Assembly: GCA_964433555.1 (NCBI GenBank)
Contig: CAYSRG010000003.1
Location: forward strand, 80,954 to 144,953
DNA length: 64,000 nt
Direction of reading: 5' to 3'
DNA from: an uncultured Atribacterota bacterium
Lineage (GTDB): Bacteria; Atribacterota; Phoenicimicrobiia; Phoenicimicrobiales; Stramentimicrobiaceae
Below the pieces are notes generated by a model. It searched no databases and was not told the origin of the DNA. It saw only the letters and a program-made list of their open reading frames with translations. Below are positions 25,899 to 62,477 of the stretch, piece by piece (the first letter of the stretch is position 1; each line of letters begins with the position of its first letter). A program made the position numbers and the translations under genes.

Positions 25899-25913
25899 CT
25901 CTCTATTCCCTTT

Positions 25914-26975: not shown

Positions 26976-26987
26976 GATCTTTTCACC

Positions 26988-38524: not shown

Positions 38525-41359
38525 ATGAAAAAGTATTTGTTACATTCAGATAAAAAAATAGAAAAACAAAAAGTATATTTTTGTTCTAAAGATAGTTTGA
38601 TTCAGGAATGCACAATCTTCCAATATAATCCAGAAGCTATGCTTTTTGTAGATAAAAACAGAAGAGTGCTGGCAATAAACCCTAGATTCAGTCAACTTTT
38701 TGATTACCAGCTGGAAGACGTGCAAGGTAAAAAGATCGATGCTTTTATTCTATTTGCCAATAATAAACAGAAAAGTTATGCAGATTTTTGGAAAAAGCTC
38801 GGTCAACAGTTTTACATCTCTGAAGCCATACTAACCAAGAAAGACCATTCTGTTGTGGAAATAGAAATTTCTGCCTCTCACATTTATAGCTCTAAGCAAA
38901 ACCATCAAGGAATTTTATTAGCCTTTAAGGATATCACCCAGAGAAACGAGAACGAAAAGTTAAACAAGGTCTTATATAATATTTCCAAGGCAGCTAACTC
39001 AAATATCTCTTTACAAGAACTTTATGATACTATTTATCAGGAGCTTAATAATATTATCGATGCCAAAAATTTTCATATTGCCCTCTGGGATAAAGAAAAA
39101 GACAAGGTTATCTTTACCTATTTTGTTGACGAAAAAGATAAGCTAGATGAAAGGGAAAATAAACGGGGAGTATCGGGTACTCTGGCTAATTACAATATAA
39201 AATATGGTAAATCTCTTCTGGCAAATTATGATCAGATATTAAAGTTTGCTGAAGCAGGGCAAGTTAACATTGCCAATATTGGAACATTGACTGAGAAAAC
39301 CTCCTGGTTGGGAGTACCACTTAAAAGTGGCAATCAAATTATCGGTTCCATGGCAGCTGTCAATTATGATAAACAAGATATATATTCTGAAAAAGATATT
39401 AATTTAATGGAATTTGTTTCCGAACAGGTAGCCACCGCTATTGAAAGAAAGAGATCAGAAGAATCCTTGCGTCAAAATGAAGAAAAATTCGTTTCCCTCT
39501 TCCGAAGTAATCCTCCAGCTACTCTTTATCAGGATGAGGAAGGCACAATATTGGATATTAATCTTAGATTTACTGAATTATTTGGTTATAAGCGAGAAGA
39601 TGTTATAGGTGAAAATATCGATCAAATCAATTTTTATCCCCCGGAAAAAACAAAGGAAGGGAAAAAGTTAACCAGAAGTGCTTCCCGCTCAACCTTGATT
39701 AAATATGAAACTTACCGCAGGTCAAAAGACGGCAGGGATATTCCTGTTCAAATTTCAACATCTCAAGTAAAAATTAAGGACCAAGTGCGAGGAATTATTG
39801 CACTCTATGAAGATATTACTGAGCAAAAACAAAATGAGAAATTGAAGCAGGTTCTCTATAATATTTCTCAAGCTGCTAACTCTAAGATAACCCTTGTTCA
39901 ACTTTATAGTATTATCCATATGGAATTAAAAAAAGTCATAAATGCTGATAATTTTTATATTGCCCTTTTAGACGAAAGTACTAATGAATTATGCTTTGTC
40001 TATTATAATGATGAAAAAGAAACCGATTTCTGTTCGAAAAATATTAGCCAAAGGATTACTCTCACCGATTATCTCATTGTGCATCAGCAGTCTCTCCTAT
40101 TAAATTATAATCAGATTCAGGAATTAGTGCTGGGAGGCAAGGTTCAAGATCCAGGAGCTGTTACTGAGGAGATATGTTGGTTAAGTGTCCCTCTGGAAAC
40201 GGAAGGCAAAGTTATCGGAGCTATGACTGTCCAGAATTATTACAATCCTACTAGTTATTCGGAAAAGGATATTAAACTTATGGAGATAGTGGCAGATCAG
40301 GTTGCCACCGCTATTGTAATAAAACAAAGTGAAGAGAAGATTACTTATATCAGTTTTCATGATACTCTCACCGGTCTATACAACAGGGCTTATTTTAAAG
40401 AAGAATTAAAAAGAATGAATCATCCCAGGTTTTTCCCTCTGAGTGTAGTAATGATTGATGTTAATGGATTGAAAGCAGTTAATGATGCCTTTGGACACCA
40501 TCAGGGAGATGAGTTATTAAAAAATTTAGCTAAAATACTACAAAGCAATTCTCGGGAAGTTGATGTTCTGGCACGCTTGGGAGGTGATGAATTTGCTATC
40601 ATTCTTCCCACTACCTCTATATCAGACGTGGAAGCTTTCAGTCAGAGAATAAATAATAGTTGCAAACAAAACTATTTCCAACCAGCGTATCTTAATCCTA
40701 ACATTTCTATAGGATTTGCTACTCAAGAGGGTGCCTTAGTTAATTGTGAAGAAATTATAAAAGAAGCTGACCATAAAATGTATCAAAATAAACTATTCAA
40801 CGCCAAAAGCAGAGAAAAATACCTTCTGAACGCTTTCCTAACCATACTGGCAGAAAGAGATGTGCATACAGAAAGTCACGCCCAACGTTTGGCAAATATT
40901 TCCTCTATAATGGGTCAAAAAATTGGCTTAAATCATTATGAACTAAATAGACTTCATTTATTGGCTTTGTTACATGATATTGGTAAAATTGGTATTCCCG
41001 AAGACATTCTATTCAAAGCTGATCCTCTGACTAATAAAGAATGGGAAAAATTAAAAAATCATTGCCAGATTGGTTACCGTATTGCCAAAAATATTCCTGA
41101 CTTCTCTTCTATTGCCAAAGAAATTTTATACCATCATGAACGATGGGATGGCACCGGATACCCGGTGGGTTTGAAAGAGAAAGAAATTCCCTTGCTCTCC
41201 AGGATTATTGCTATTGTTGATGCCTATGATACTATGCAATCCAGTAGGAATTACAAAAAAACATTAAACCAGAAGGAAGCATTGGAGGTAGTAAGGAAAA
41301 ATGCAGGCAGTCAGTTTGATCCAGACCTGGTTACTATTTTTTTAGAAGTTCTAAGGTAA
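38525..41359 (+). CDS. (PAS-GAF)x2-GGDEF-HD-GYP c-di-GMP enzyme
   Basis: duplicated PAS-GAF units, HDTLTGLYNR, REVD I-site plus GGDEF, LHDIGKIG, HHERWDGTGYP. Confidence 0.93.
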   Translation: MKKYLLHSDKKIEKQKVYFCSKDSLIQECTIFQYNPEAMLFVDKNRRVLAINPRFSQLFDYQLEDVQGKKIDAFILFANNKQKSYADFWKKLGQQFYISEAILTKKDHSVVEIEISASHIYSSKQNHQGILLAFKDITQRNENEKLNKVLYNISKAANSNISLQELYDTIYQELNNIIDAKNFHIALWDKEKDKVIFTYFVDEKDKLDERENKRGVSGTLANYNIKYGKSLLANYDQILKFAEAGQVNIANIGTLTEKTSWLGVPLKSGNQIIGSMAAVNYDKQDIYSEKDINLMEFVSEQVATAIERKRSEESLRQNEEKFVSLFRSNPPATLYQDEEGTILDINLRFTELFGYKREDVIGENIDQINFYPPEKTKEGKKLTRSASRSTLIKYETYRRSKDGRDIPVQISTSQVKIKDQVRGIIALYEDITEQKQNEKLKQVLYNISQAANSKITLVQLYSIIHMELKKVINADNFYIALLDESTNELCFVYYNDEKETDFCSKNISQRITLTDYLIVHQQSLLLNYNQIQELVLGGKVQDPGAVTEEICWLSVPLETEGKVIGAMTVQNYYNPTSYSEKDIKLMEIVADQVATAIVIKQSEEKITYISFHDTLTGLYNRAYFKEELKRMNHPRFFPLSVVMIDVNGLKAVNDAFGHHQGDELLKNLAKILQSNSREVDVLARLGGDEFAIILPTTSISDVEAFSQRINNSCKQNYFQPAYLNPNISIGFATQEGALVNCEEIIKEADHKMYQNKLFNAKSREKYLLNAFLTILAERDVHTESHAQRLANISSIMGQKIGLNHYELNRLHLLALLHDIGKIGIPEDILFKADPLTNKEWEKLKNHCQIGYRIAKNIPDFSSIAKEILYHHERWDGTGYPVGLKEKEIPLLSRIIAIVDAYDTMQSSRNYKKTLNQKEALEVVRKNAGSQFDPDLVTIFLEVLR

Positions 41360-41553: not shown

Positions 41554-42483
41554 CTAAGTAATTTTTTTTAGATATATTTTTCCCTGTTGGTGCCAAAAAT
41601 TTCTAATCTGTTTTCTTAGCTGGGCAGAATATTCTGGAATGGCTCCAGAACGGCTAGCTACAAATGCTCCTACCTGATTAGCAAATATTGCTGATTTTCC
41701 AGCACCTGCTCCAGATAAAAAGGCAAACAAAAATGCCGCACTGTAACTATCACCTGACCCCACCGTATCCTGAACCTTTGTTTTAACACCAGGAATAGAA
41801 TAACAATTATCTCCTTCATAGACCAAAGAACCTTTCTCTCCCAGGGTTAGGCATAAGATTTTTAGTTTGTATTTTGAAGATAACGCCTGAAAGATATCTT
41901 CTCTGCAGTAGATTTTGCCAAATAATAGTTTAGAAATATTAATAGCTTCTTCTTCATTCAGTTTTAAAATGGTATTAAAATGTAAAGATTGTTCAATCCA
42001 TTCTCTCTGATAAAAGTTCTGTCTAAGATTGACATCATAAAACATCTCTCTACAGGATAAATTTGATAATAATTCATAAAGAAGATCTCTATTAACTGCT
42101 GAACGCTGAGCTAAAGTACCAAAGCAGAAGGCATCCCAGGTCTCTTTTAATAATTTATCCTTAGATTCTTTGCTTAACATAATCTGATCCCATGCTACTC
42201 CTTTGTGTATGTTATATTTTGGGTATCCCTGCTGGTCTACATACACCTCAACCTTTCCGGTTGGCAAATTCAGATTAGTGGTAATATACCGAGTATCAAG
42301 TCCATACTTTTTGGCAATTCTTAAGGCTTCCCTGCCTAATTTATCTCTTCCGACCGCAGAAATAAATGTTGACTTAACACCCATTCCAGCTAAATGGCAG
42401 GCTAAATTGAATGGTGCGCCACCTATATACGCCTTTCCTGCAATGATATCCCATAATAATTCACCAAATGATAAAACTTTCAC
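41554..42483 (-). CDS. PfkB-family carbohydrate kinase
   Basis: FGELLWD, GGAPFN.A, YDVNLR, LKLNEEE, DTVGSGDSY. Confidence 0.93.
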   Translation of the reverse strand: MKVLSFGELLWDIIAGKAYIGGAPFNLACHLAGMGVKSTFISAVGRDKLGREALRIAKKYGLDTRYITTNLNLPTGKVEVYVDQQGYPKYNIHKGVAWDQIMLSKESKDKLLKETWDAFCFGTLAQRSAVNRDLLYELLSNLSCREMFYDVNLRQNFYQREWIEQSLHFNTILKLNEEEAINISKLLFGKIYCREDIFQALSSKYKLKILCLTLGEKGSLVYEGDNCYSIPGVKTKVQDTVGSGDSYSAAFLFAFLSGAGAGKSAIFANQVGAFVASRSGAIPEYSAQLRKQIRNFWHQQGKIYLKKIT

Positions 42484-42519
42484 TGTTCTTTTTCCTCTTC
42501 ACAAATCTATCTATGACTT

Positions 42520-43782
42520 TTAAATTGGTTGAGCATTGGCAAGCAAATACTTTTCTGCCTGTGGTGACCATAATCCATTAGTTACTGACAGAATATCAGC
42601 CAATCCTCTCATTACAGGTTCTTCCTTTACTTTTTGCGGTATTTCGGAAAGAGCAATAAGATCCATTTTGATATTGGTGTATATTAATTTCTTCCCCCCA
42701 GGAATCGTGGGTAAATTAAGTGTGGTTTCAACCACACAGTTTAATCCACCTATGTGAGTAACCATAGCAGCAGGATTAATAACATTTTTTCCCATCATTT
42801 CCAGTGCTTCAATCATATCCTCTGTATTTCCACCACTGCTTCCCACTAGATGGGTGGATAAATAATGAATATTATAAAAATTCACAGTTGCATTAAAATG
42901 GGTATCTGTGGGACCGGCAAAAAAATTTAAACATCCATCTCTGGCTAATAAGGAATCACCCAACTCAACAACTTCCCTTATGGGCGCCATGATAAATATA
43001 TCATCATATCCTCTCCCTTCGCTGATGCAAAGTAATGATTTGCTTATATCTTTTTCTTTTAGAGGATTAAGATAGATAAGTTTAACTCCCATTTTCTCAG
43101 CTTTAGAAACAGAAAATATCTTTCCAGCTCTATACAATCGTTGGTCGTCAACATCTGTTATTACCAGTAATCCTGGCCTCTTTTCCCGATGTAGTGCATA
43201 ATCAATCATGCCTAAACCCATCGGTCCAGCCCCTCCCATAATCATCATATTCCCTTTTTCTTTTATTCCCATATAATGAATATATTCTCCTGGAGTAGTA
43301 TGAAAACTGGTATGAAAGGCACCAATAATACAGGACATTGGTTCTGCTAAAGAACCACTATAAAAAGCTTCACCTTTATAATGAAGCAAGCAATTCATTT
43401 CCATTACCTGATTGGGGATAATTATATAGGTAGCATCACCGCCAATATAAGGGAAAGAATAGCCAGGAGCATCAAGCGTTCCTTGATAATTTAATGCTGG
43501 TTGAATAGCAAATTTCTCTCCGCTATGAAATTCATGCTGCCATTTTTTCCCTACTTCAATAATTTCACCGCAAAACTCATGTCCAATAATAGTAGGATTC
43601 TCACGAATATTCTCTGGTACCCGCTTGTGTTTTTCACCCTGAATAGCTGCTTTATAAGATGAAAGACATAAACTATCTGTAATAACATGAGCTAATATTT
43701 CATCATCCTGTCTAGGAGGTAACTCAAACTCTTCCAGCCGTAAATCATTTTTTCCGTAAATTCGAACAGCTTTCGTTTTCAT
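42520..43782 (-). CDS. sorE: L-sorbose-1-phosphate reductase-like Zn-dependent (MDR) oxidoreductase
   Basis: TDSLCLSS, IIGHEFCG, PGYSFP, EPMSCIIGAF, GPMG...IDYALH, DGCLNFFAGP, GSSGGNT, PGGKKLIY follow the SorE pattern over the full length. Confidence 0.85.
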   Translation of the reverse strand: MKTKAVRIYGKNDLRLEEFELPPRQDDEILAHVITDSLCLSSYKAAIQGEKHKRVPENIRENPTIIGHEFCGEIIEVGKKWQHEFHSGEKFAIQPALNYQGTLDAPGYSFPYIGGDATYIIIPNQVMEMNCLLHYKGEAFYSGSLAEPMSCIIGAFHTSFHTTPGEYIHYMGIKEKGNMMIMGGAGPMGLGMIDYALHREKRPGLLVITDVDDQRLYRAGKIFSVSKAEKMGVKLIYLNPLKEKDISKSLLCISEGRGYDDIFIMAPIREVVELGDSLLARDGCLNFFAGPTDTHFNATVNFYNIHYLSTHLVGSSGGNTEDMIEALEMMGKNVINPAAMVTHIGGLNCVVETTLNLPTIPGGKKLIYTNIKMDLIALSEIPQKVKEEPVMRGLADILSVTNGLWSPQAEKYLLANAQPI

Positions 43783-43811
43783 AGTATTACCCTTTTCATT
43801 TATATCATTGA

Positions 43812-45062
43812 TTATCTTAACATGACCTGCCCACCGGCAACAGGTATCGCCTGACCTGTTTCATACTTCTGTCCGATAACATACAATACTGCTTTTACAA
43901 TATCCTCACAACTACAACCCCTACCCACAGGTATTTTGGATTTATAGAATTGCCTAACATCATCAATATTACGAGCCCCTGGTACTTTGCCACTTTTTAG
44001 ATATTGTACAAAAAGACCATTTCGGGGATCAGACCAGAGAGGACCTTCGAAAAAATTACCAGGACATATTGCATTTACCTTAATATTATCTTCTAATAAT
44101 TCCTTAGCAAAGCTTTGTGTTAATCCTATACCGGCAAACTTGCTTCCAGCATAAGCACAATTCTTATAGGAACCTTCTAATCCAGATTTGGAATTAATTT
44201 GAATAATATCAGTTATATAATCAGAATGACCCTTGTTCTGCCAAGCCATTACCCGGGAGGCATGTTTGGTACATAAAAAGTAACCAAAGTAATTTACCTT
44301 ATTGACAAACTGAAAATCCTGAAAATTCATTTCCTTAACACTTTCGGCTTTCAGTACACCTGCATTATTAATAAATACATCCATTCCACCTGTATTTCTA
44401 ACAATCTCCTCAGTCATTTCCTGTACTGATTTCTCATTGGTCACATCAACGCTTACTGCGAAAGCACACTTTTTATCATAAAGATAATTCAATTCCTCCA
44501 CCAATTTTGCAGCACCCTCCCTATTAATATCAGCTACAAATAAGAAGGCACCCATTTTAACCAAGTTTCTGACCAAACAGGCGCCAATTCCCTGGGCACC
44601 TCCGGTAACTACAATGATCTTTCCTTTTACACTGCAGGTAATCTCATAGTCTGGTTTTGAGACACTTTTCTGAGGAACAGACACCTGCATTAGTTCAGTT
44701 AAAGGCTCTTTCTGTGTATCCAGACATTCTTGATAGTTAGAACCTGAAAATAAAATCATATCATTATCTAATGTAATAATATGAGGATGATATTTATGTC
44801 CCTTCAGATACTGCTGATAATCCTGAGAAAGTCTTTTTATGATATCATATTTTTTTTCTAAGAAGGACTCTTCATCAATGGAAAGTTCAATAGTAAGAGG
44901 TGGGTTTAACAATTTTCCAGTTCTGGAAAGTTCATTAATTTTGTCCTTGAGCTGTAAAATTTTTCCTGGATTCTTCTCATATTTTATATACCTACCCTTT
45001 TCACCATCAAAACTAAGACCTCTAATCAGAGGAATAAGCATATTTAGAAATGAATTTTTCAT
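43812..45062 (-). CDS. sorbitol-6-phosphate-dehydrogenase-like SDR with ~145-aa N-terminal extension
   Basis: TGGAQGIG, NNAG, IIQINSKSG, YAGSKF.G.GLTQS, K.P..RGC, TGQ...V.GGQVM as in SrlD/GutD. Confidence 0.8.
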   Translation of the reverse strand: MKNSFLNMLIPLIRGLSFDGEKGRYIKYEKNPGKILQLKDKINELSRTGKLLNPPLTIELSIDEESFLEKKYDIIKRLSQDYQQYLKGHKYHPHIITLDNDMILFSGSNYQECLDTQKEPLTELMQVSVPQKSVSKPDYEITCSVKGKIIVVTGGAQGIGACLVRNLVKMGAFLFVADINREGAAKLVEELNYLYDKKCAFAVSVDVTNEKSVQEMTEEIVRNTGGMDVFINNAGVLKAESVKEMNFQDFQFVNKVNYFGYFLCTKHASRVMAWQNKGHSDYITDIIQINSKSGLEGSYKNCAYAGSKFAGIGLTQSFAKELLEDNIKVNAICPGNFFEGPLWSDPRNGLFVQYLKSGKVPGARNIDDVRQFYKSKIPVGRGCSCEDIVKAVLYVIGQKYETGQAIPVAGGQVMLR

Positions 45063-45100
45063 AAAATCCTCCCAGTGGTAAAGATTAACCAGAGAATAAT

Positions 45101-46432
45101 TTATACATATGGTAATAAATGAGCTACGTTCTCTGGATTATAAGGATCAATTTGTCGGCCAATAGCACCATAAACTTTTAGCTTATATCTTAAGGAATGG
45201 TTTCTCAAAGGATTCTGCTCATTAAAAAGAGCGTAGTGTAGATTGTAATTTGCTAATTTCTCATGAGCAATTAAAGCCCAGGTCATATCAATTAAATGTT
45301 GAAATGGTGGTTTTAGTATTTCAGGACAATTAAAACTTTGTCTGGATTGATTGATATCCACTCCACTTATCTCCATCAAATTATATTCCTGACAGAGCTG
45401 CTGTACTCTTTTTAATTGCTGGATGGTATTGCGAGGTGGCATATAGGTTACTGCTTTAAAACCAATACTTTTTATCTCAGCAAATAATTCTTCTAAATAA
45501 TCATCTTCAAATTTCTGGCTCTTCTTATCACCAGTAGGAGATTCTAATACATCACCTAAATAGGCATAGGCTGGAATAGCATAGATAGAATTAGCAAAAT
45601 TTATTGCTTCATAAACTGAAATACACTCCTGATAGTCAGGTTCTATATAAATATTTTCCATGAATGAACTCTTTAAAATCCCTAATAAATCATAAAGATA
45701 GTGGGGATTATTGGATTCAATTAAGTATGATTTGATTTTTTCTGGAATGATAATTCTTAATTTTCCTTGTAAAAAACTAATCAATTTTTTACCCTTGCCA
45801 ATTTGCTGAACTAAATTTTTGGCTAGAGCAAGAAGAAGATGTCTCTCGGTAACACTGCCCCCCTCATCAGCCTTAGATAGAGGGAAAATATTCTGGTAAT
45901 AATCAATTTTTTCAATACCAAAATCAAATAATAATTGATTCATTCTTTCTACCATTAAATAATTTCTGGCATTACGTCTTTCATTGATGGATTTAAGAAA
46001 TTCTTTTGTTCTGCTAAACTGGCTCTGCGCTATACCATGTATGGCAATATAGGCTATATTTTTAGAATCAGGACTGTTTATTCGCCTTCCTTGTAGTCTA
46101 GTCTGATTAAAATTAACCCTCAATTCAAAACCTACTGTAGAAGATATTCCTATACTTTTGCAGGCGAACAATAATTCTTCACATCCTGCGATAGAATCAT
46201 GATCCATAATACCGATAGTTTGAAGTCCAGCTTTCCAGGCCTGAAAGGCTGTGCAGGAAGGAGAATAAGGACTAAAAGAATAAATGGTATGAACATGATT
46301 GTTAACCTCTTCGCTTTTCTTTCTAATTATTTTCCCCTTTTTTATCATCTTTCCTATCTCGGTAATTGCTTGCAAGCGCTCTGTTTTAGTTGTACTATTT
46401 AATTTTTCTGTAAGATAAATTAAAATATCCAT
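45101..46432 (-). CDS. PHP-domain protein with atypical metal ligands
   Basis: NNHVHT..S, GIMDHD, GFELR, IAIHG present; usual AHP and GSDxH positions read AYL and GVDIN. Confidence 0.8.
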   Translation of the reverse strand: MDILIYLTEKLNSTTKTERLQAITEIGKMIKKGKIIRKKSEEVNNHVHTIYSFSPYSPSCTAFQAWKAGLQTIGIMDHDSIAGCEELLFACKSIGISSTVGFELRVNFNQTRLQGRRINSPDSKNIAYIAIHGIAQSQFSRTKEFLKSINERRNARNYLMVERMNQLLFDFGIEKIDYYQNIFPLSKADEGGSVTERHLLLALAKNLVQQIGKGKKLISFLQGKLRIIIPEKIKSYLIESNNPHYLYDLLGILKSSFMENIYIEPDYQECISVYEAINFANSIYAIPAYAYLGDVLESPTGDKKSQKFEDDYLEELFAEIKSIGFKAVTYMPPRNTIQQLKRVQQLCQEYNLMEISGVDINQSRQSFNCPEILKPPFQHLIDMTWALIAHEKLANYNLHYALFNEQNPLRNHSLRYKLKVYGAIGRQIDPYNPENVAHLLPYV

Positions 46433-46509
46433 ATAACCTTACTTTGATTAGTTCTTAATTTAATATAGTGGTGTAAAATATTTTTAGAATTATTAGAAAC
46501 GGTAAAAAT

Positions 46510-48966
46510 TTATACACCTTGCTTATTTCTCCGAATAATCTCCTTAATACTCTGCTTGGTGGAAACTTCATGTCCTGGAAGTGGACATATTCGTTCATGT
46601 AAGGCATCAATAATCCACTCCTTCTGAGGAAAGAATACTTCTTCCAGCTCAGCAGGGGGAGTAATCCAGTTCCTAGAACCCAATATCACAATTGGTCCAT
46701 CCAGAAGATCAAATAACAGTTGATGGAGATTAGATGCCACTGTATGGAGAAAAGAACCTCTTTCACAGGCATCTGAAGCTAATAATACTTTTCCGGTCTT
46801 TTGAACAGAATTAATCAATATCTGGTAATCGAGGGGATTAATAAATCTCAAATCTATAACTTCAGTAGAAAGATGATACTTTTCTTCTAACAACTGCGCT
46901 GCTTCTAAAGCACGATACAAGGTAGCACCAATAGTAATTATGGTCACATCTTTTCCTTCTCTTCTAACTATGGGTTCACCTTCATTGATTTCATAATAAC
47001 CGGTAGGAACTCCCTCTTTAACAAATTGTTCTCCAATGTCATACAATCTTTGACTCTCAAAAAAGATAACCGGATCAGTTCCTCTTAAAGCCAGATTTAA
47101 CATACCTTTGGCATCATAGGGAGTTGCTGGAAACATTACCTTTAAGCCCGGGATATGAGCCACTAAAGAAGCCCAATCTTGAGAATGTTGCGCACCATAT
47201 TTATTACCTACCGAAACTCGAACTACCAGTGGCATCTTCAATACAGCAGCGGACATAGCCTGCCATTTGGAAATTTGGTTAAAAATTTCATCACCTGCTC
47301 TACCCATAAAATCACAGTACATCAATTCCACTACTGCCCGTCCTCCGCTTAAAGCATAACCAGCAGCGGAACCAACAATAGCTCCTTCTGAAATTGAGGT
47401 ATTAAACAAACGATGATAAGGAAGCGATTCGCTTAATCCGCGATACACACCAAACGCTCCACCCCATTCCCTGTTTTCTTCTCCATAGGCAACCATCGTA
47501 GGATCCTGAGAAAAACGAAATAGCATGGCTTCAAAGAGAGCATCCCGATAGGTAAGCTGGCGCATTCTGGGTACCTCTTTTCCCCTCTCATCAAGATAAT
47601 AACGCTTTTTCTGAGCTATAGACTTTACGCGTGAATTTTTATTCTCTGGTATTAATAACTCAGGTTTCCGATCATCCATTTTATCCATCAGTTGGTTGGA
47701 AAACATAAACCTCTCAATCAAGTCACCATTCGGTCTGGGTGATATTTCCTCAGAAGAAGCTAATTGAGTAATATGTTTTATTTTTTTTCTTACTATTTCC
47801 TTTATTTTCTGGCATTCCGCATCATTTATGAGGCCATGCACTTGCAGATATTTCCGATAACCTTCCAAACCATCTACTGCCTGCCAACTTTCGATTTCTT
47901 CTCTAGACCGGTAGGTAGAAGGATCAGAGGGAGAATGACCGGAAAAGCGATAAGTAATAGTATCCAATAATACAGGCCCTTCTCCGGCTAATAATAACTT
48001 TTTTTTACGTTTAATGGCATCAGCGACTGCTAAAGGATTGTATCCATCTACTCTCTCACTATGCATATTTTGGTAATTCACTCCTGCTCCCACCCGTGCC
48101 AGATACTGAAAGCCCATAGTTTCACCAGAGGTCTGTCCACCCATGCCATAAAAATTATTAAAAAAATTAAATAAAATTGGAGGAGCTCCTCCGATCTTTT
48201 TGTTCCATAGGGTATGAAATTGTTCCATAGCAGCAATAGTAATTGCCTCCCATACTGGTCCACAACCCATAGCACCATCACCTATACAGCTTATGACTAT
48301 TCCCGGTTTTCGGTTAATTCTCTTAAAAAAAGCTGCCCCTACACTGATATCCGCAGAACCACCTACAATAGCATTATTGGGCATACTGCCAAATGGGGCA
48401 AAAAAGGCATGCATGGAACCTCCCATTCCCCTGTTAAAACCATCTTTACGTCCAAATATTTCTGCTAATACTCCATACAAAATAAAATCCTCTACCAGAT
48501 CTGAAAATTCTCCCTGATGGTGTTTTTCCACTACTCTTAAACATGAACCATCCAGATAGTCTTGCATAACTTGCCATAACTCTTTTTTCTCTAATTTTCT
48601 TACAGCAGCAAAACACTTAGCTAGAATCTCTCCATGGCTACGGTGAGAACCAAAGATATAATCATCAGGTTCTAAGTTAAGACACATTCCTACTGTTGCT
48701 GATTCCTGTCCTAAAGAAAGATGGGCTGGTCCCGCATGTTTATAATATATTTCCTGGTAGGAACCTTTAGTTTTAATATTATCCAGCATAGTTTCAAACT
48801 CGCGAATAATCAGCATATCGTAATATATTTGTTTCAATGTTGATTCTCCATAAAGACTTAACTCTTTCTTAATATCTGGTTGATATTGATTAAGGGGAAT
48901 ACTATCAATATGAATATAACCTTTTTGCCGGACTTCTTTAGGATCAACAAATAATGATTTGGGCAT
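46510..48966 (-). CDS. fused alpha/beta E1 component of a ThDP-dependent 2-oxoacid/acyloin dehydrogenase
   Basis: [18 protein letters not shown], ThDP motif GDG...[10 protein letters not shown]; beta half [23 protein letters not shown]. Confidence 0.92.
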
Positions 48967-49029
48967 TTATATCACTCCTTCCTGTAGCAATCTCAGTAAA
49001 GAAAAGCATAGCATAATAGATTTTTTTAA

Positions 49030-50268
49030 CTATGGTGTCTCATCAGGTTGATAGGAAAAATTTTCTAAAATAGTAATAACCTGTTGCAAGAAACGTGCAG
49101 CGGGTGCTCCATCAACAACTCTATGGTCAAAGGTAAGAGAAAGACCAATATAAGGTGAAAATTCAATAACATTGGTTTTCTTAATTGGTCGTAGTTGGGG
49201 ACACCCGATACCAATAATTCCTGTCTGTGGGGCATTAAGAATTGGAGTAAAGTATTCAACTCCTAGATTTCCTAAATTAGTAACTGTAAATGTGCCTCCT
49301 TCCAGATCTTCAGGTTGAATACTTTTATCTATACATTGCTGTGTCAATTGTTGTACTTTCCGAGCAAATTGCAACAGAGAATATTGCTCTGCTTGATGAA
49401 GAACGGGTGCTTTCAATCCTTCAGCAGTATCTACAGCAAAACCCAGATGAACTTCTTTAAACTGGATTATCATCCTTTCCTGAGCATAACTATTTATAGC
49501 AGGATTATTCTTCAATGCTTTAATAATTCCAAACATAATAAGATGATTAATATTGATATCTGGATAGGATAATGTTTCTTTTGTTTCTTTTAATTGAGCG
49601 CGATATTCCATTACCCTTTTTGCTAAAAAGGAAGAATGTAGGGTTAGTTGAGCAGAATTCTGGATGGAAAATAACATCCTCTCGGCAATAATTTTACGAA
49701 TTCCTTTCATAGGAATTTTCTGATATGATTCAGATTTTATTTTCTTTTCGGAAGTGGATATTGTCAGATGCCCCATCGTTTGAATTGTCTCTTGCACATC
49801 TCGCTCAATTATCCTCCCCTCCGGGCCACTTCCTTTGATAGTAGAGATATCTAAATTCTTAGTTATGGCTAAGGTATGGGCTCTGGGAGAAATCTTGATA
49901 TGTATATGTTGATCAATATCACCTTTACCTTCCAATTGATCCAGAGTGGTTTTTCCAACAGCAGTCTCAGATTTTAGGGATACTTCTTTTTTGGTCTTTT
50001 CTTTTTTTAAGAGATGTTGGTATTCTTCTCCTGGTTTCCCGATAACAGCAATAGTCTCCATTACCGGTACTTCCTCGCCTTCTTTATGTAATATCTTTAA
50101 CAAAATACCTGTGGCTGGAGATTCAATTTCGAAAACTGCTTTATTAGTTTCAACTGCACAGATAATTTCTCCTTTTTCTACTCCTTCTCCCTCTTTCTTT
50201 TTCCACTCCTGTATTAGACAGCTTTCATCGGAAAGTCCCTTTTGTGGGACAATCACCCTGGTTACCAT
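49030..50268 (-). CDS. dihydrolipoamide acyltransferase (E2)
   Basis: lipoyl domain VETNKA, subunit-binding SPRA...GSGPEGRI, catalytic GGTFTVTNLG and DHRVVDG. Confidence 0.93.
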   Translation of the reverse strand: MVTRVIVPQKGLSDESCLIQEWKKKEGEGVEKGEIICAVETNKAVFEIESPATGILLKILHKEGEEVPVMETIAVIGKPGEEYQHLLKKEKTKKEVSLKSETAVGKTTLDQLEGKGDIDQHIHIKISPRAHTLAITKNLDISTIKGSGPEGRIIERDVQETIQTMGHLTISTSEKKIKSESYQKIPMKGIRKIIAERMLFSIQNSAQLTLHSSFLAKRVMEYRAQLKETKETLSYPDININHLIMFGIIKALKNNPAINSYAQERMIIQFKEVHLGFAVDTAEGLKAPVLHQAEQYSLLQFARKVQQLTQQCIDKSIQPEDLEGGTFTVTNLGNLGVEYFTPILNAPQTGIIGIGCPQLRPIKKTNVIEFSPYIGLSLTFDHRVVDGAPAARFLQQVITILENFSYQPDETP

Positions 50269-50405
50269 AACTCGCCACCCCCTATTGTTTTTAGGTGCAA
50301 GTCAAACAAATATAGCTTGTTTACTAATCTAAGTTTAATTATATCATTATTATATGGTTTTTGGTTTACAGTTTTAGTTTAATTCCATGCAGGTATAGAA
50401 AAGGT

Positions 50406-50693
50406 AGATTTATTTACTCCCTATGTTCGTTGGCAATGACAATTTAGTCGTTAGTCGAAAGTATCTAGTCGTTAGTAGATGGTAGGTTATTATTGGTTTT
50501 CAGTTAAGACCATTAGATTTGGATTTTTAAATGATAATTCTTAATACTTAATAATGACTTATTACCCATTACTATATATTCTTCACGTTATACTGTATAT
50601 ATTACATGATATAGGCAATACACATTACATATAACTAAAGTGTCATTGCGACCTGACCCTTAACTAGTGTTAAGAGCAAGTGTGGCAATCTCA
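50406..50693. repeat. inverted pair of REP-like elements with heptamer tandem repeats
   Basis: AGATT...GGCAATGACA (50406-50441) and TGTCATTGCG...TGGCAATCTCA (50641-50693); TTAGTCG repeats inside, TATACNN repeats just outside. Confidence 0.6.
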
Positions 50694-50756
50694 TTCACTT
50701 ATTCCCATATAAATGCTATACCATATACGCTATACTTTATACGGTATATTATATAC

Positions 50757-52544
50757 TTACTTATAAAGTGGTCCAAAATTCCGACAGGCTCGAAAATCGG
50801 CATTTTCTAAATTATCTGTACCAAAGGCGCTCCAGGTTTTGGGTCTGAAAATATTCTCTTCGGATACATTATGCATAGCAACTGGAATCCGTAATAAAGA
50901 AGCTAGGGTAATTAAATCCTTCCCAATATGCCCATAACTTACTGCTCCATGATTGGCACCCCAATAATTCATTACAGAATAAACATCTTGAAAAGCTCCC
51001 TTTCCTGTAATTATGGGAGCAAACCAGGTAGTAGGCCAGGTGGGATCAGTCCTCTCTGTTAAAACATAGCTAACATCATCAGGTAACTCAACCGTATATC
51101 CTTCAGCAATTTGGAGTACAGGACCCAATCCTTTTATGAGATTAATACGAGACATGGTTACTGGCATTTCACCGCGAGTCCAGAAAGTGGAAGAATAACC
51201 CCCTCCCCTAAAATATTCTAAGTTGGCTGGACTCCAGTGAGTATTTTCCAGACATGCCTTGACATCTTGTTCATTTATTTCCCAGAATTGCTTCATAACT
51301 GAGTGTCCATTTTCTTTCTGCTGACCGGTAGCATCAAGGGTAGTAGCACCAGAATTAAGCAAGTGGATAACACCATTTTTTGCTCTTCCGCTTAATTCTC
51401 TTCCGGTAACCCTTTTCACAGACTCAGGGCTCCAGAAGGTGCGCACATCTGAAAACATCTGTGCCCGATTGCTCAGCAGATGATTCCATAACATAGCAAT
51501 TCCATTCAGACAATCATTTTCTGTAGCAAATATGAATGGTTCCCGAATACCATTCCAGTCAAAAGAAGTATTAAGTATGGTCTCGGTGAAATCTCCATTG
51601 GGAAAATGGTCAGTCCATTGTCTTTGTCCCTGAAATCCAGCGGCAATAGCATTATGTCCTTCGGATTCTTCCTGATAATCCATCTCTGCTAACTTTTTAT
51701 TACCGATCATTAAATCTCGAGCAATTATGGTCATCTTAACTACTGTTTCCCATTCTTTTTCTTTTTGTTGCCAGGAGTGCCTTATCTTCTCCTTATTTCT
51801 ATCTTCACCTTCCCGGCAATTTTCTTTTACCCAAGCCAGCGCTTTTTGATATTCCTCCTGATCATAGATTCCCTCGTTCATCCTGCGTATAAATTCTGAC
51901 ATATCTACAAATTCAGTACGCATTCCCAGATAATCTTTTAAAAATTCTGGATTTATGACTGAACCAGCAATACCCATAGATACACTGCCTAAAGAAAGGT
52001 AAGACTTCCCCTTCATTATTGCCACCGCTAAGCCTGCTTTGACAAATTGCAATATCTTTCCTTTTACATCTTCTGGAATGGTTTCATCATTAGCATCCAT
52101 TACTTCCTTTCCATAAATACCAAAGGCTGGTAATCCCAACTGATCATGGCCAGCTAACGCTGCAGCTAAATAGACAGCACCAGGTCTTTCAGTTCCATTA
52201 AATCCCCAAATAGCCTTCGGTAAATAGGGATCCATATCAATGGTTTCCATCCCATAACACCAGCAAGGAGTAACACTAAGAGATACCCCTATATTGGAAT
52301 GAGCAAATTTATCCGCACATTTTGCTGCTTCTGCCACTCCACCAATAGTAGTATCAGCAATAACACATTCTACCGGCAAACCATTAGGATGACGCAAATG
52401 TGAACTTATTAAGTTAGCAGCTCTTTCCGCCATTTTCATAGTCTGCTCTTCTAAAGACTCACGTACCCCCCTTCTTCTTCCATCTATAATTGGCCTTATC
52501 CCTACTCTGGGAAGTGTACCAATTAGTCTGTTTTTAAAACCCAT
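50757..52544 (-). CDS. fucI: L-fucose isomerase
   Basis: [63 protein letters not shown]. Confidence 0.97.
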
Positions 52545-52671
52545 TTTTTGACTCCTCTCTATCTAATAATTGCAGTATAAACTTTTTTAATCATACTAAC
52601 CAGTAAGAGGGTGTTCTGTTAGTTCAGTAGTAATGACACAACAAAATAAAAATACTCTATAACTACATATA

Positions 52672-53091
52672 TTAAGAAATAACACCCTTCTTTAAAATAA
52701 TATTGGCATATAGCGACCTTTCTCCGGTTGCCACAATAGCATAACCTTGAGCAGCTCTTTGATAAAATTGGAATCTTTCCAGAGTTTTAATACTATAATT
52801 TTCTTTAGATGCCTTAAAAATATTTTCGTAACACTGCCATATCTGGGGTTTGGCTTCCTTACCAGTATCCATATAAAATACATTATGAGCTTCATATTGA
52901 TCCAGGGGTAGAAAAAGTAAAATTGCCTCTAACAACTCTGGAATACCGTGACCATCGGCTCTTACGCTCAAGGTGCCAGCAGACTCCACCGGATAATTTG
53001 CATCCGCCAGTACAATCTCATCCCCATGTCCCATCTCCATTAACACCATCATTAACTCCGGAGAAATAATCGCTGGAATATTCTTCAACAT
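52672..53091 (-). CDS. fucU: L-fucose mutarotase (RbsD/FucU family)
   Basis: MLKNIP.IISPEL...L.EMGHGDEIV.ADANYP, ERF.FY, TGE..LYANIILKKGV; start at ATG 53091 with AGGAGAG RBS. Confidence 0.93.
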   Translation of the reverse strand: MLKNIPAIISPELMMVLMEMGHGDEIVLADANYPVESAGTLSVRADGHGIPELLEAILLFLPLDQYEAHNVFYMDTGKEAKPQIWQCYENIFKASKENYSIKTLERFQFYQRAAQGYAIVATGERSLYANIILKKGVIS

Positions 53092-53695
53092 AATTACTCT
53101 CCTTTCTATACAGTCTATATTTAAACCAAAACAAGGTAATAATATTTGACCACAAGGATTGTGAATAATTCTTTGCACTTTATTTTTATTATGAATCAGT
53201 TATTCTTAACTACTAAAATGTATCTTTTACCTTATTTTATTCACATAGCTTTTATATTATTTTATCATTAAAATCTATAAATATCATAACGTGATACAAT
53301 TTGTTAGGCATGAATCTGTTTTCCCTTTTTTTGTTTTATAAATGATATAAATTCCTATTCTTTAAAAAAACAAAACTCCAGTATAATAATGCTCCAAGTA
53401 AACACAAATAGCCTGGTATATTATAATTTATACAAGCATACCGCCGTAATTGGTCATAAATACTGTCTAAGCAAGCTGTGCTATTGGTAAAGCAAACACT
53501 TCTTTCCCTTTTTCTGGTAAAGTCTTGATAGACTAATGACTGAATAAAAATAACAATCATTATAATCATAGCTATTTAAGATATTATAAAAATAAAGTAA
53601 GTCTTTTCTTTATTTATCGGGTCCTTGGTCCTCTATTTTTAATGCGTGAGGTTCCCCTTTACAATAAAGGTATGTCGCTTCTTCTTTTCTTGATA

Positions 53696-54922
53696 TTATT
53701 CCAAAAGATTTTTATATATCCTACCATTCTTCATTACCAGGCTTATATTTTTAAGCGCAGTAATGTTACTTAATGGATCTCCCTTTACAGAGATAAGATC
53801 AGCGAACTTACCTTTCTCTAACGTTCCGATCAAATCTTCCATACCAAGAAGTTCTGCGCTATTCTTAGTAACTGCCATAAGAGCTTCTAAATTTGAGGCA
53901 CCAAGGTCAACAAGATATTTAGCCTCTTTCCATAAAAAAGTATGTACTGAATCAACTGCCAGGCAAAATTTTACACCAGCCTTAATTCCCTGTGACATAT
54001 ACTTCTTTGTTAATTTTGCAGATTCTATCACTTTGTTTCTCCACCAATCTTTTTTATAGTCTTCTCCCGCCTGAAATCCAGTTTTTTCATCAAAAAACAA
54101 CTGTAAATTGGGATCACTAAGCCTTGTTCCATACTTAATAAAGTATTCGATATCCTGTTCCTCAAGCATATTTGCATGCTCTATACTATCAATACCGGCT
54201 TCCATAGCCCATCGCATAGCTGGCCCACCGATTGCATGCCCGGCAACTTTCATTCCAAGATCATGCGCTTGACCAATTGCCGCAAATAATTCCTCCCGGG
54301 TGTAGGCAGGCATCTGAGTCAGATCACCTCTACGGTAGTCCTCGCGAGTATTGCCGTGAGATACATTCGTTACAAATAACTTAACCACATCAGCACCCAT
54401 TGAAAAATTTTGTCTAATCATTTTTCTGAGCTCTTCTGGACCATCTGCCGGGGCAGCAAGAAAATATGCTGTACCATGGCTCGGACGTAATGGACGAATT
54501 GATATTACCAAGCGTGGACCTGGAATTTCCCCAGTGTTTATGGCATCTCTAAATCTTAATTCGAGATCTCCTGCAGCACCCAACGTGCGCATCGTTGTTA
54601 CGCCAGACGTTAAATCATGCTGCAAGTTAACACAACCTCCTAAAATAGCTGTGGTAAGATCAGAAGGAGGTTGTTCCTTTAACAAGGTCTTGAATTCTGG
54701 ACAATATTGACTATTCATTGTAATATGACAATGAGAATCAATTAAACCTGGCAGTACAGTTTCTTCCGTACAATCAATTACTTGACAATTCTGAGGAATA
54801 ATGACAGATTCTAAAGTTCCCACTTCTATAATCCGATCACCTTGTATCATTACTACTCCTTTCGGAATAGGAGGCTTTTCCGGATCTATAATAAGCTGCT
54901 TGCTTTTAATAGCTGTTTTCAT
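53696..54922 (-). CDS. amidohydrolase-family (Xaa-Pro dipeptidase-like) metallohydrolase
   Basis: PGLIDSHCH, GVTTMR, GADVVK, AGHA, SIEH, G.LEKGKFADL. Confidence 0.88.
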   Translation of the reverse strand: MKTAIKSKQLIIDPEKPPIPKGVVMIQGDRIIEVGTLESVIIPQNCQVIDCTEETVLPGLIDSHCHITMNSQYCPEFKTLLKEQPPSDLTTAILGGCVNLQHDLTSGVTTMRTLGAAGDLELRFRDAINTGEIPGPRLVISIRPLRPSHGTAYFLAAPADGPEELRKMIRQNFSMGADVVKLFVTNVSHGNTREDYRRGDLTQMPAYTREELFAAIGQAHDLGMKVAGHAIGGPAMRWAMEAGIDSIEHANMLEEQDIEYFIKYGTRLSDPNLQLFFDEKTGFQAGEDYKKDWWRNKVIESAKLTKKYMSQGIKAGVKFCLAVDSVHTFLWKEAKYLVDLGASNLEALMAVTKNSAELLGMEDLIGTLEKGKFADLISVKGDPLSNITALKNISLVMKNGRIYKNLLE

Positions 54923-55111
54923 GACAAACTATCTCCTTTATATTATTTATATTATTTTCGCCTATAGACCTTTTAAAAATTTAATTTTGAATCATTCCGT
55001 TATAATATCGACTCACATAATTCTAAATCATTTCAATCAGTATTTTGTTTCTCATTATTTTTTAAATAATAGCTTAAAATATTAAGATTAAAGATACTGC
55101 TCCCTTCATTA

Positions 55112-56293
55112 TCATTCAAATGTACCGAATTTAATGACTTTTTCATCTTCCATCAATACTTTTCCTTTAGCCACAACATGTTTAATTTGTAATGAATCCT
55201 GATCAAGAACCAATAAATCTGCATCTTTACCTTCCCTGATTTCTCCCTTATGTTCGAACTTTAGATGTTCAGCAATATTTGTAGAAGTAACCCTGATAGC
55301 ATTTTCTATCGATAGTCTTTCTTGCTGAATCAGGTCTCTGAATTCTTGATGCAGTGAAGAAAGAGAGGAAACGGACATACCGATCAATTCTTTATGTTCA
55401 TTCCAACGGGGAATACTGCCGTTTCCATCAGAACTCATTGTAATTCTATTTATGGATACTCCTTCTTCTATCAACCTTTTTACTGCTCTAGAGGCTTTTA
55501 TTTTCCCCGTTGATTGAGGTCCGGCAGATGCTCCAGTTGTTAAATCGACATAACCTCCCATCTTTCCGAAGGCAATATCATTTTTGAATGATTCCTCATT
55601 TTTTGCCAGGTGAGTTGGAGCAAATTGCCCTATGGGTATATCCGTCTTGTTTATAATCTCAAAAAGATAACCCAAACCTTGTTTTTCGCTTCCCATGTGT
55701 ATGTGAACTACTCCTGCCTTCCCAGCTAATATACCAGCTATTCTTGACTCAGAAACCACCCTGATAAATTCCTCTATTGTAGGATGAGAGGCTCTATGAT
55801 CTGATACGGCAATTTTTAAACCAATAACTTTATCAACGAACAATAAGTCAGATGTAATACTCCCGGTAATTGTTGGAGAAGGATATTGGTATGCACCAGT
55901 ATAGATCCAGGTACTGATACCCTCTTGCTCCAATTCTTTGGCCTTCATAAAAAGAGATTTTAGCGAACGCGCTATTCCGTCTGTTCCTAACAAACCAACA
56001 ACCGCAGTAATGCCTGCTTTCACAAATTCACTGAATTGGGTTGGAGGAGTTCGGTATTGAGGCCCGCCCTCTCCACCACCTCCATCAAGGTGAACATGCT
56101 GATCAATATGCCCTGGAATAATGATACATTTTGAAGCATCCAATATTTTTAAATACCCGTTTATCATATCAAAAACTGTTAAATCAATATCCTGACCAAT
56201 AGAGAAAACTTTCTCATGAATGATCAGGATATCTTTCATCCCTTTATAGTCCGGAGAATATATATGACCACTTTTTATCAATAATAGACTCAT
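55112..56293 (-). CDS. iadA: isoaspartyl dipeptidase (beta-aspartyl peptidase)
   Basis: DQHVH..GGGGEGG, GLLGTDG, K.A.SDHR, H.HMG, PTH, SSDGNGS. Confidence 0.93.
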   Translation of the reverse strand: MSLLLIKSGHIYSPDYKGMKDILIIHEKVFSIGQDIDLTVFDMINGYLKILDASKCIIIPGHIDQHVHLDGGGGEGGPQYRTPPTQFSEFVKAGITAVVGLLGTDGIARSLKSLFMKAKELEQEGISTWIYTGAYQYPSPTITGSITSDLLFVDKVIGLKIAVSDHRASHPTIEEFIRVVSESRIAGILAGKAGVVHIHMGSEKQGLGYLFEIINKTDIPIGQFAPTHLAKNEESFKNDIAFGKMGGYVDLTTGASAGPQSTGKIKASRAVKRLIEEGVSINRITMSSDGNGSIPRWNEHKELIGMSVSSLSSLHQEFRDLIQQERLSIENAIRVTSTNIAEHLKFEHKGEIREGKDADLLVLDQDSLQIKHVVAKGKVLMEDEKVIKFGTFE

Positions 56294-56374
56294 ACTTCTG
56301 TACCTTTCACAAACTCTTGTTTAGTCAGACTTTTTTTAATTGAAAGCATATCCCTCTTTCCATTATGGAAAATA

Positions 56375-57193: not shown

Positions 57194-57262
57194 ATAAGAC
57201 CTCTTTTAATCTCCTTAATGGTTGACTAATTTTTCAATATTTTTTAATGTTTGTTTATAAAC

Positions 57263-58456: not shown

Positions 58457-58695
58457 TATTTTTAGTCCCTCTAAAATTAATTTACCTGATATGGAGTAAA
58501 ACTTTTTGTTAATAAAAACAAATTTGTCTCATAATAACTATATTAAAACAGCACAGCTAAAACCTTTCCTATAAAATATGTTTGAATAATTACCCTTTTA
58601 AATTCAGTATCATTTTATTAATAATAAGCTATTTCTTTCATTATTCTTTTATTTTCATGTATTTCCATGTCAAATGCAGAAGACCATAGCTTAAA

Positions 58696-59637: not shown

Positions 59638-59818
59638 TTTATTATCTGATTCAATTCCTTTCTTCCATTTTTTTTAGATCAATTAAAAATCTCTAAAATT
59701 ACATTCTACATCTAAGAATAAATTTTATATCCTATTCTTACTGTCTGTTGCAAACCACTATCAATTGATGGTATTAATGAAAATAAATCTTTCTCCTCTT
59801 ATATTCATCAATTCATTA

Positions 59819-60871: not shown

Positions 60872-61046
60872 GCATCATTTACCTCATGTCATGTTATGTA
60901 ATAATATATTTAAAAATCCTATTTCATATACTACAAATCCCATACAAAAAATGATTAATAATAAATATAAAATGAGTATTTTTCTTAATTTTACTGTATC
61001 TCTTTAACTTGAAATTAAGCAAGGTTTTATATAATTGCTATACATA

Positions 61047-62327: not shown

Positions 62328-62477
62328 TATATCTCCTTACCATATTTATTATTTAGCTTTTTAAATAGATATTATAATGATTTGTCCTTTCCTTGACTTT
62401 TATATTCATTCAGTTAGTTCATGTTTTCTGAATTAAATAAAGACTTTTATCCTTTTAAAAAGTGCTTAGTAAAAACT

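Follow-up and report, generated by a model that had tools for sequence, protein, structure and literature searches.

A conserved gene cassette linked to 6-deoxyhexose catabolism in Atribacterota and other bacterial phyla, and a possible route from L-fucose and L-rhamnose to acetyl-CoA

Introduction

Algal fucoidans, mucins and plant walls contain L-fucose and L-rhamnose among their major sugars. A 64,000-nucleotide stretch of DNA (hereafter, the window) on contig C3 of an Atribacterota metagenome-assembled genome (MAG; G000, a 2.34 Mb assembly, 97.6% complete), whose host is described as a sediment bacterium, raises the question of why genes of a pyruvate dehydrogenase (PDH)-like complex should stand between genes of L-fucose entry and genes of polyol-phosphate metabolism. 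Eight co-oriented minus-strand open reading frames (ORFs) fill positions 41554–53178 of the window. Comparison of the ORF list with Pfam and NCBIfam profiles finds each of them where a preliminary description of this DNA had placed it, with matches to the families named there: fucU, fucI, the E2 and E1 components of a thiamine diphosphate (ThDP)/lipoyl complex, a PHP-domain protein, an SrlD-like short-chain dehydrogenase/reductase (SDR), a SorE-like medium-chain dehydrogenase/reductase (MDR) and a PfkB-family sugar kinase. The same description had read this order as an aldolase-independent fucose pathway ending in cleavage to acetyl-CoA.

The comparative analysis reported here bears out that interpretation in part. 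Its deoxyhexose link and its SorE/SrlD logic appear, from sequence comparison, to gain strong comparative support, whereas the proposed independence from an aldolase is not established. These genes may degrade fucose and rhamnose to acetyl-CoA by a so far undescribed route.

A five-gene cassette present in several phyla

The central genes of the cluster, E2-E1(fused)-PHP-SDR-MDR, are a conserved five-gene cassette found across several bacterial phyla. Within Atribacterota, PHP orthologs (E 2e-44 or better) occur in 22 of 86 genomes, belonging to two families, and the order E2-E1-PHP-SDR-MDR is kept in 13 fetched loci, again from two families. For other phyla, species genomes were scanned with a PHP alignment and the best 80 of 569 PHP relatives were taken with flanks of 10 kb; a locus with E1, SDR or MDR beside PHP was counted as a cassette locus, and one with none of these as PHP-only. 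By this definition 57 of the best 80 loci, which come from Spirochaetota, Kiritimatiellota, Verrucomicrobiota, Planctomycetota, Lentisphaerota, Myxococcota and other phyla, hold the cassette and 23 hold PHP alone. Within the 57 cassette loci, SDR was found in 53, E1 in 45, MDR in 42 and E2 in 34, and E1 orthologs are 57–70% identical across phyla.

The usual order outside Atribacterota is DeoR-E2-E3-E1-PHP-SDR-MDR-(HAD or pyrophosphatase)-FGGY kinase-transketolase, the last gene being present only sometimes. Clustering of the flank ORFs from these other phyla yielded an E3-type flavoprotein in 26 loci, DeoR in 20, transketolase in 10 and transaldolase/FSA in three, and 20 of the 57 cassette loci carry an FGGY kinase that is RhaB-like; Atribacterota cassettes carry no E3. 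The kinase usually present is closest to rhamnulokinase (472–490 bits vs. a cut-off of 528). In one of the two Atribacterota families (f2), the cassette is preceded by a sugar ATP-binding cassette (ABC) transporter, an L-rhamnose mutarotase (116.6 bits vs. 99.6), a class II aldolase-like protein of 263–305 aa corresponding to the N-terminal region in models of bifunctional aldolase/SDR proteins, and a rhamnulokinase-like FGGY kinase (490 bits); downstream of the cassette come genes for a ureidoglycolate-lyase-fold protein, another ABC transporter and a ribokinase-like protein. A mannitol-dehydrogenase-family gene lies between PHP and SDR in one Atribacterota locus (L069:4589–5803), and in two loci from Spirochaetales (L070:2296–3504 and L133:2127–3329) such a gene precedes the cassette.

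Association with fucose and rhamnose genes

An association of the cassette with fucose or rhamnose isomerase, anticipated in the preliminary description, recurs in several phyla, with fucI/fucU in some lineages and rhaA/rhaM/rhaB-like genes in others. At least one of fucI, fucU, rhaA, rhaM or a RhaE-like gene lies within 10 kb at 19 of the 57 cassette loci vs. none of the 23 PHP-only loci, and counting the RhaB-like kinase as well brings the cassette figure to 30. In Pontiella sulfatireligans F21, fucI and fucP (a fucose:H+ symporter, 474.8 bits vs. 280.4) stand directly upstream of the cassette, and in a spirochaete genome (G240) a FucU ... FucI segment is divergent from DeoR-E2-E3-E1-PHP-SDR-MDR. 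The same trend is observed at the level of whole genomes. Among Atribacterota, 16 of the 22 cassette genomes encode FucI vs. 11 of the 64 others, and RhaA occurs in four of 86 genomes, all four of them cassette-bearing. In a sample of 151 Spirochaetota, an E1 ortholog was found in eight, of which seven have FucI, five have RhaA and all eight have one or the other, compared with 25 of the 143 genomes lacking E1; FucI was also present in five of five further cassette genomes tested. These locus and genome counts support tying the PDH-like genes to 6-deoxyhexose catabolism, and we consider the link strong.

In the window itself, the fucI gene (50757–52544, minus strand; 595 aa) encodes an L-fucose isomerase that exceeds the cut-offs of both equivalog models over residues 10–595 (NF008220, 1074.8 bits vs. 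775; TIGR01089, 1024.9 vs. 850). Upstream of it, the fucU-like mutarotase gene (52672–53091, minus strand; 139 aa) matches PF05025 (143.7 bits vs. 25) and, below cut-off, the L-fucose mutarotase model NF011949 (123 bits vs. 141); its ORF is open to 53178, and the orthologs, which are likewise upstream of fucI in L036 and L037, have the 139-aa length counted here from the ATG at 53091. At the other end of the cluster, the PfkB-family kinase (41554–42483, minus strand; 309 aa) matches PF00294 (128.4 bits) and exceeds the cut-off of no equivalog model. Among the 13 fetched Atribacterota loci, FucU-FucI is directly upstream of the cassette only in the window, G084 and G075, and PfkB is downstream of MDR only in G000, G080 and G075; in L070 and L133, related PfkB genes precede the cassette.

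The earlier statement that the window has no fuculokinase, aldolase or lactaldehyde reductase stood for FGGY kinase, class II aldolase and iron-containing alcohol dehydrogenase (Fe-ADH) genes, the last by a whole-genome search, with window ORFs below about 21 kb left unscanned; it had extended to phosphotransferase system (PTS) genes, which were not searched for. Genome-wide, the FGGY kinases of G000 best match rhamnulokinase or xylulokinase, the FucK model TIGR02628 reaches at most 141.6 bits vs. a cut-off of 470.9, and all fucA models stay below cut-off; G000 also encodes an AraD-type epimerase outside the window.

A SorE-like reductase and an SrlD-like dehydrogenase

The MDR (42520–43782, minus strand; 420 aa) is 52% identical to the protein annotated as SorE in the complete sor operon that a Serratia plasmid carries, with 420 of 420 residues aligned (E 2e-159), 49% identical to yggP, and 49–52% identical to sorE/yggP across plasmid-collection records; its homologs are labelled 'L-sorbose 1-phosphate reductase' in the sources, and its translation shows Cys and His-Glu positions that we take to be metal ligands. 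The full-length match makes the designation SorE-like well founded, and the protein is, by homology to the SorE/YggP family, a predicted ketose-1-phosphate reductase. A role as lactaldehyde or dihydroxyacetone phosphate (DHAP) reductase was considered and dropped in view of the 52% identity to SorE. MDR orthologs of 65–68% identity also occur in cultured thermophilic Firmicutes, namely Caldicoprobacter species and Caldicellulosiruptor saccharolyticus (P0138, P0149, P0222, P0231).

The SDR (43812–45062, minus strand; 416 aa) consists of an SDR domain (residues 148–414) behind a 145-aa N-terminal extension. The sorbitol-6-phosphate dehydrogenase model NF009050 is the best of 217 models for this protein (242.3 bits, under its cut-off of 307), the best PDB match is 5o3z (8.5e-45), and the Ser/Tyr/Lys positions are invariant in 28 sequences, which makes the designation SrlD-like a reasonable one; weaker matches are to acetoin reductase/butanediol dehydrogenase models (133–136 bits). 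In the L-sorbose operon, SorE and SorD/SrlD (glucitol 6-phosphate dehydrogenase) form a pair that leads from a ketose 1-phosphate via a hexitol phosphate to a ketose 6-phosphate, and the cassette resembles it in having a SorE-like MDR beside an SrlD-like SDR. It differs from that operon in its SDR, which is only 29% identical to the sor-operon enzyme and carries the extension, and in its partners, a ThDP/lipoyl complex and a PHP protein.

The N-terminal extension of the SDR connects it to a second known system. Its residues 6–147 align with residues 236–387 of a 674-aa class II aldolase-like/SDR fusion in L110, and similar fusions occur in L074 and L094. These fusions match models of the RhaEW type end to end (for example, TIGR02632 positions 3–670), at 213–232 bits vs. 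cut-offs of 568–931, and thereby tie a RhaE-like protein to the SDR. The window protein has no aldolase domain and matches TIGR02632 in its SDR part only (141.5 bits vs. 567.75); judged by sequence, it appears to be a distant member of the RhaEW architecture as well. RhaEW is described as a bifunctional L-rhamnulose 1-phosphate aldolase/L-lactaldehyde dehydrogenase (Rodionova et al., 2013, PMC3870299). The likeness lies in the aldolase-like and SDR modules, fused in these three loci and split in Atribacterota, and in their occurrence in rhamnose clusters. The differences are the low scores, the closer similarity of the SDR to SrlD, and the constant presence in the cassette form of PHP and, nearly always, of the SorE-like MDR.

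The ThDP/lipoyl complex and the PHP protein

The E2 gene (49030–50268, minus strand; 412 aa) encodes a dihydrolipoyl acyltransferase with lipoyl, E3-binding and catalytic domains (PF00364, 55.3 bits; PF02817, 43.6; PF00198, 224.1), in whose translation ETNKA presumably marks the lipoyl-lysine context and DHRVVDG the catalytic-domain motif. The E1 gene (46510–48966, minus strand; 818 aa) encodes a fused alpha-beta, ThDP-dependent protein with E1_dh, Transket_pyr and Transketolase_C domains. Both proteins stay under the equivalog cut-offs, with the E2 at 264.3 bits vs. 445 on TIGR01349 and the E1 at 233.6 vs. 321 on NF006667 and 194.5 vs. 394 on TIGR03182, and none of the acetoin, PDH or 2-oxoglutarate dehydrogenase (OGDH) equivalog models reaches its cut-off for either. 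The complex shares with AcoABC(L) and the 2-oxoacid dehydrogenases a ThDP-type E1, an E2 of the usual three domains and, in other phyla, an E3 located between E2 and E1, and it differs from them in the fused E1, the sub-cut-off scores, the lack of E3 in the Atribacterota cassette and the sugar-phosphate neighbours. G000 has three E1/E2 sets in all; the two outside the window (C4:21546–30460 and C2:144000–153592) each stand with a tripartite ATP-independent periplasmic (TRAP) transporter, one of them also with a sigma-54 activator and an LplA/B-like gene and the other with an SDR and an aldehyde:ferredoxin oxidoreductase.

The PHP-domain protein (45101–46432, minus strand; 443 aa; PF02811, 30.3 bits vs. 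26.4) is a predicted phosphoesterase. Its AlphaFold model (predicted local distance difference test score, pLDDT, 93.1) is closest to the folds 3o0f/3e0f, 2yb1 and 9etk (target-normalised template modelling score 0.69–0.72), and residues H46, H48, D77, H78, E103 and D359 are invariant. By its modelled fold the protein would be a cog0613-type phosphoesterase; a role as sugar isomerase was dropped in view of this fold. It resembles other proteins of that type (the 3',5'-bisphosphate nucleotidase Cv1693, 2yb1; RNase AM, 9etk; Bad_1165, 3e0f) in fold and in the invariant N-terminal HxH and DH motifs, and differs from them in its identity of only 15–18%, in a length greater by about 150 residues and in its context of sugar catabolism. 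The family also has an invariant D359-x-N361 at what is presumably the place of the terminal DxH motif.

A PHP tree, built by a quick method, intermixes cassette-linked and unlinked copies, so that no cassette-specific clade can be separated. Distant PHP paralogs of other Atribacterota families (23–26% identity, tblastn) have no conserved neighbours and therefore offer no functional clue, and the PHP clusters of the ESM Atlas are named only 'PHP domain-containing protein'. In four loci of the Planctomycetes-Verrucomicrobia-Chlamydiae (PVC) group (L080, L088, L092, L097), PHP orthologs of about 53% identity directly follow a gene encoding a roughly 790-aa Ser/Thr protein kinase, near RluD in three of the four and with no cassette in the flank, which hints at a role of the PHP family apart from sugar genes.

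Proposed route to acetyl-CoA

The reading that we tentatively prefer, while placing it just short of an even chance, is that the cassette is a catabolic unit for L-fucose and L-rhamnose, fed in this genome by FucU/FucI and PfkB, and that it leads to acetyl-CoA as follows. FucU and FucI, whose family assignments are given above, would convert L-fucose to L-fuculose, and a kinase (PfkB here, the RhaB-like FGGY kinase in most relatives) would form a 6-deoxy-L-ketohexose 1-phosphate. The MDR, by virtue of its identity to SorE, is expected to reduce the C2 keto group to give a 6-deoxyhexitol 1-phosphate, after which the SDR, if it acts like SrlD, would oxidise the C5 hydroxyl, which is beside the methyl group and four positions from the phosphate-bearing carbon. 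Renumbered from the other end, the product of this step would be a 1-deoxy-ketohexose 6-phosphate, that is, a methyl acyloin. The 6-deoxy compound, unlike the product of the sorbose pathway, cannot join glycolysis as fructose 6-phosphate. The ThDP-dependent E1 would cleave it, and the acetyl unit would pass via lipoyl-E2 to give acetyl-CoA along with a tetrose 4-phosphate, which transketolase and transaldolase would take up. We only infer the acyloin cleavage chemistry, and with it the substrate and product of E1/E2, by analogy with acetoin dehydrogenase. Along this route, each well-assigned enzyme could act in the way usual for its family.

The tetrose-phosphate product, already part of the preliminary description, is fitted by the genes that adjoin the cassette elsewhere (transketolase at 10 loci and transaldolase/FSA at three). 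The C4 difference between fuculose and rhamnulose would be lost at the cleavage step, so that one cassette could serve both sugars. By stereochemical reasoning, both would lead to D-threose 4-phosphate unless the 1-deoxy-ketohexose is epimerised at C4, and it is conceivable, more speculatively, that the class II aldolase-like module acts as an AraD-type 4-epimerase to give D-erythrose 4-phosphate instead. The complete proposal, a third and aldolase-free route for L-fucose and L-rhamnose in which a SorE/SrlD-like flip is followed by ThDP/lipoyl cleavage to acetyl-CoA and tetrose 4-phosphate with the aldolase-like module as 4-epimerase, is one that we put forward as possible, on balance doubting it somewhat more than we believe it.

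Aldolases and alternative readings

Independence from an aldolase, the most specific element of the preliminary description, is only partly supported. In its favour, of the 10 non-Atribacterota genomes with the cassette, two (G087 and G240) are without any class II aldolase, and in a third (G090) only AraD exceeds the cut-off (332.7 bits vs. 257). All three have FucI, so that three of the 10 combine FucI with the lack of a candidate aldolase; G240 passed a 90% completeness filter, while no completeness figure is available for G087 and G090. Two others, G119 and G171, have only an AraD-like protein and a RhaE-like one. With L-fucose pathway I (FucI, FucK, FucA, FucO/AldA, sometimes with PVC-type microcompartments) the cassette genomes share the entry enzymes FucU and FucI, plus FucP in Pontiella. 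They differ from it in that E. coli-type FucK is above cut-off in none of five cassette genomes, in the two genomes lacking class II aldolases, and in the microcompartment shell genes, which are absent from G000 and from four of five other genomes tested. The Pontiella description states that its authors found fucK in neither strain (PMC7356697).

A number of observations weigh against the aldolase-free route. A RhaE-like class II aldolase gene adjoins the cassette in family f2 and is fused to the SDR in L074, L094 and L110, which means that the aldolase step may belong to the system. G000 itself carries a RhaA/RhaE-like/RhaB-like cluster (C12:62952–66508) and two Fe-ADH genes outside the window, as well as an operon on the minus strand of the same contig (C3:65114–69719, 11–16 kb before the window start) that encodes an aldehyde:ferredoxin oxidoreductase, a 202-aa class II aldolase (PRK08660-like, 186.5 vs. 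203 bits) and a transketolase, and that could constitute an aldolase route oxidising lactaldehyde with ferredoxin. Given the RhaE-like gene, this operon and the two Fe-ADH genes, a lactaldehyde route is possible in G000. The cassette-bearing P. sulfatireligans F21 forms 1,2-propanediol from L-fucose, according to two reports (PMC7356697, PMC6388578), and lactaldehyde is therefore made there. The route also has difficulties of its own: D-threose 4-phosphate, its product in the case of no epimerase, is not a standard intermediate; E1 is missing from the fetched flank at 12 of the 57 cassette loci, some of them cut by contig ends; and no lipoamide dehydrogenase is above cut-off in G000 (best TIGR01350, 132.9 vs. 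408.8 bits), where the sole E3-like candidate is a 462-aa Pyr_redox_2 plus Pyr_redox_dim protein at C2:28055–29443. The PHP protein has no assigned step in it, with orthologs occurring outside the cassette too, and the genomes compared are related and non-independent, so that the co-occurrence counts overstate the statistical support.

In an alternative reading, a class II aldolase, RhaE-like or of another kind, would cleave the deoxyketose 1-phosphate to DHAP plus L-lactaldehyde; the SDR would play the part of the 'W' half of a RhaEW-type enzyme and oxidise the aldehyde to lactate, and E1/E2 would convert a C3 product (pyruvate or similar) to acetyl-CoA. The homology of the SDR extension to the second lobe of the fusions, which match RhaEW-type models at full length, the RhaE-like genes in f2 and in G000, the propanediol formed by F21 from fucose (PMC7356697) and the in vitro formation of DHAP and L-lactate by RhaEW reported in its description (PMC3870299) all speak for it. 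We nonetheless regard it as unlikely, since it gives no role to a homolog 52% identical to SorE, leaves the transketolase and transaldolase neighbours unexplained, is at variance with the three FucI-bearing cassette genomes that lack a candidate aldolase, and requires PDH-type activity of an E1 that falls under the PDH cut-offs. Moreover, the SDR scores 242 bits on the SrlD model vs. 141 on TIGR02632 (cut-off 568), and even the fusions stay at 213–232 vs. 568–931.

It is also conceivable that the cassette serves another phosphorylated ketose or polyol, such as the FucI product of D-arabinose or L-galactose or a sugar alcohol, and that its proximity to fuc and rha genes merely reflects shared sugar islands. 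FucI does accept D-arabinose. At 38 of the 57 cassette loci, the 10-kb flanks hold neither an isomerase nor a mutarotase for fucose or rhamnose, nor any aldolase-like gene, and some loci have mannitol-dehydrogenase-family, DUF4432 or alpha-amylase genes instead. What makes this reading improbable is the recurrence beside the cassette, in separate phyla, of two deoxyhexose sets (fucI/fucU/fucP and rhaA/rhaM/rhaB-like), the presence of FucI or RhaA in all eight Spirochaetota cassette genomes and of FucI in 16 of the 22 Atribacterota ones, and a usual kinase nearest to rhamnulokinase (472–490 bits vs. 528). Still further from our expectation, and in our view very improbable, is a transcription unit that joins two unrelated functions, an ordinary acetoin or 2-oxoacid dehydrogenase E1/E2 and an MDR and SDR of the butanediol/acetoin type. 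The matches of the SDR to acetoin reductase/butanediol dehydrogenase models at 133–136 bits, the distant likeness of the MDR to the butanediol dehydrogenase 6ie0 (E 4.3e-05) and the two further E1/E2 sets of G000 could be read in this way; against this, the MDR is far nearer to SorE (E 2e-159), no acetoin-specific model is above cut-off, and the five-gene order, with sugar kinases, DeoR and transketolase alongside, is conserved from phylum to phylum.

Implications of the proposed route

If the acetyl-CoA route is correct, it would avoid lactaldehyde, propanediol and microcompartments, and the predicted fermentation products would shift to acetate or ethanol, away from propanediol. Its carriers would be Atribacterota, Kiritimatiellota, Spirochaetota and further anaerobes that live in sediments and in fucoidan-degrading communities, and it would, to our knowledge, be the first to use a lipoyl/ThDP dehydrogenase complex on a sugar phosphate. 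It would also fill gaps such as the occurrence of FucI without a candidate aldolase in three genomes and the missing fucK of both Pontiella isolates, the latter as stated in their description (PMC7356697). Our literature search, within the portions of text available, found no description of the cassette or of the proposed intermediates. Genome surveys at present recognise just two fucose pathways; a 2026 survey of fucoidan degraders sorted its genomes using no others than the MetaCyc pair, I and II (PMC13668718). The route is directly testable, because P. sulfatireligans F21 is in culture and the proposed E1 substrate is enzymatically accessible.

Surroundings of the cluster in the window and genome

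Within the eight-gene cluster, intergenic gaps measure 29–127 bp, with the sole exception of the spacer between fucI and E2 (50269–50756). The preliminary description had noted this gap as one of about 490 bp with repeats; it measures 488 bp, and it does contain direct and inverted repeats, namely two families of 21-nt tandem repeats along with an inverted repeat of 16 nt, whose arms are 94% complementary and separated by 185 nt. A promoter/terminator scan listed no terminator-like site in this spacer, the scan itself being no better than shuffles (49 vs. 50.1; 12 vs. 7.8), and its result was not used. The corresponding junction is shorter in two relatives (147–195 bp).

Convergent with the cluster on the plus strand (38525–41359) is a gene for a 944-aa PAS-GAF-PAS-GAF-GGDEF-HD(HD_5) signalling protein, a neighbour found also in G080, G084 and G075. 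Upstream of fucU, positions 53696–64000 hold genes for two amidohydrolases, a D-aminopeptidase (M55), an S58 peptidase, asparaginase-2, M19 and M24 peptidases and oligopeptide ABC ATPases; this run forms an island for peptide use, with no relation to the sugar genes. MacB/HlyD/OEP efflux genes at 24001–28000 lie in a stretch with a GC content of 0.43–0.46, compared with about 0.35 elsewhere, and this stretch may be acquired DNA. Elsewhere in the genome, a repeat of 53–61 bp is common to C12:67085–67139 and to the ends of C25, C33, C29, C27 and C20 and probably represents the end of a repetitive element at which the assembly breaks. On C12, the rha cluster stops 631 bp short of this repeat.

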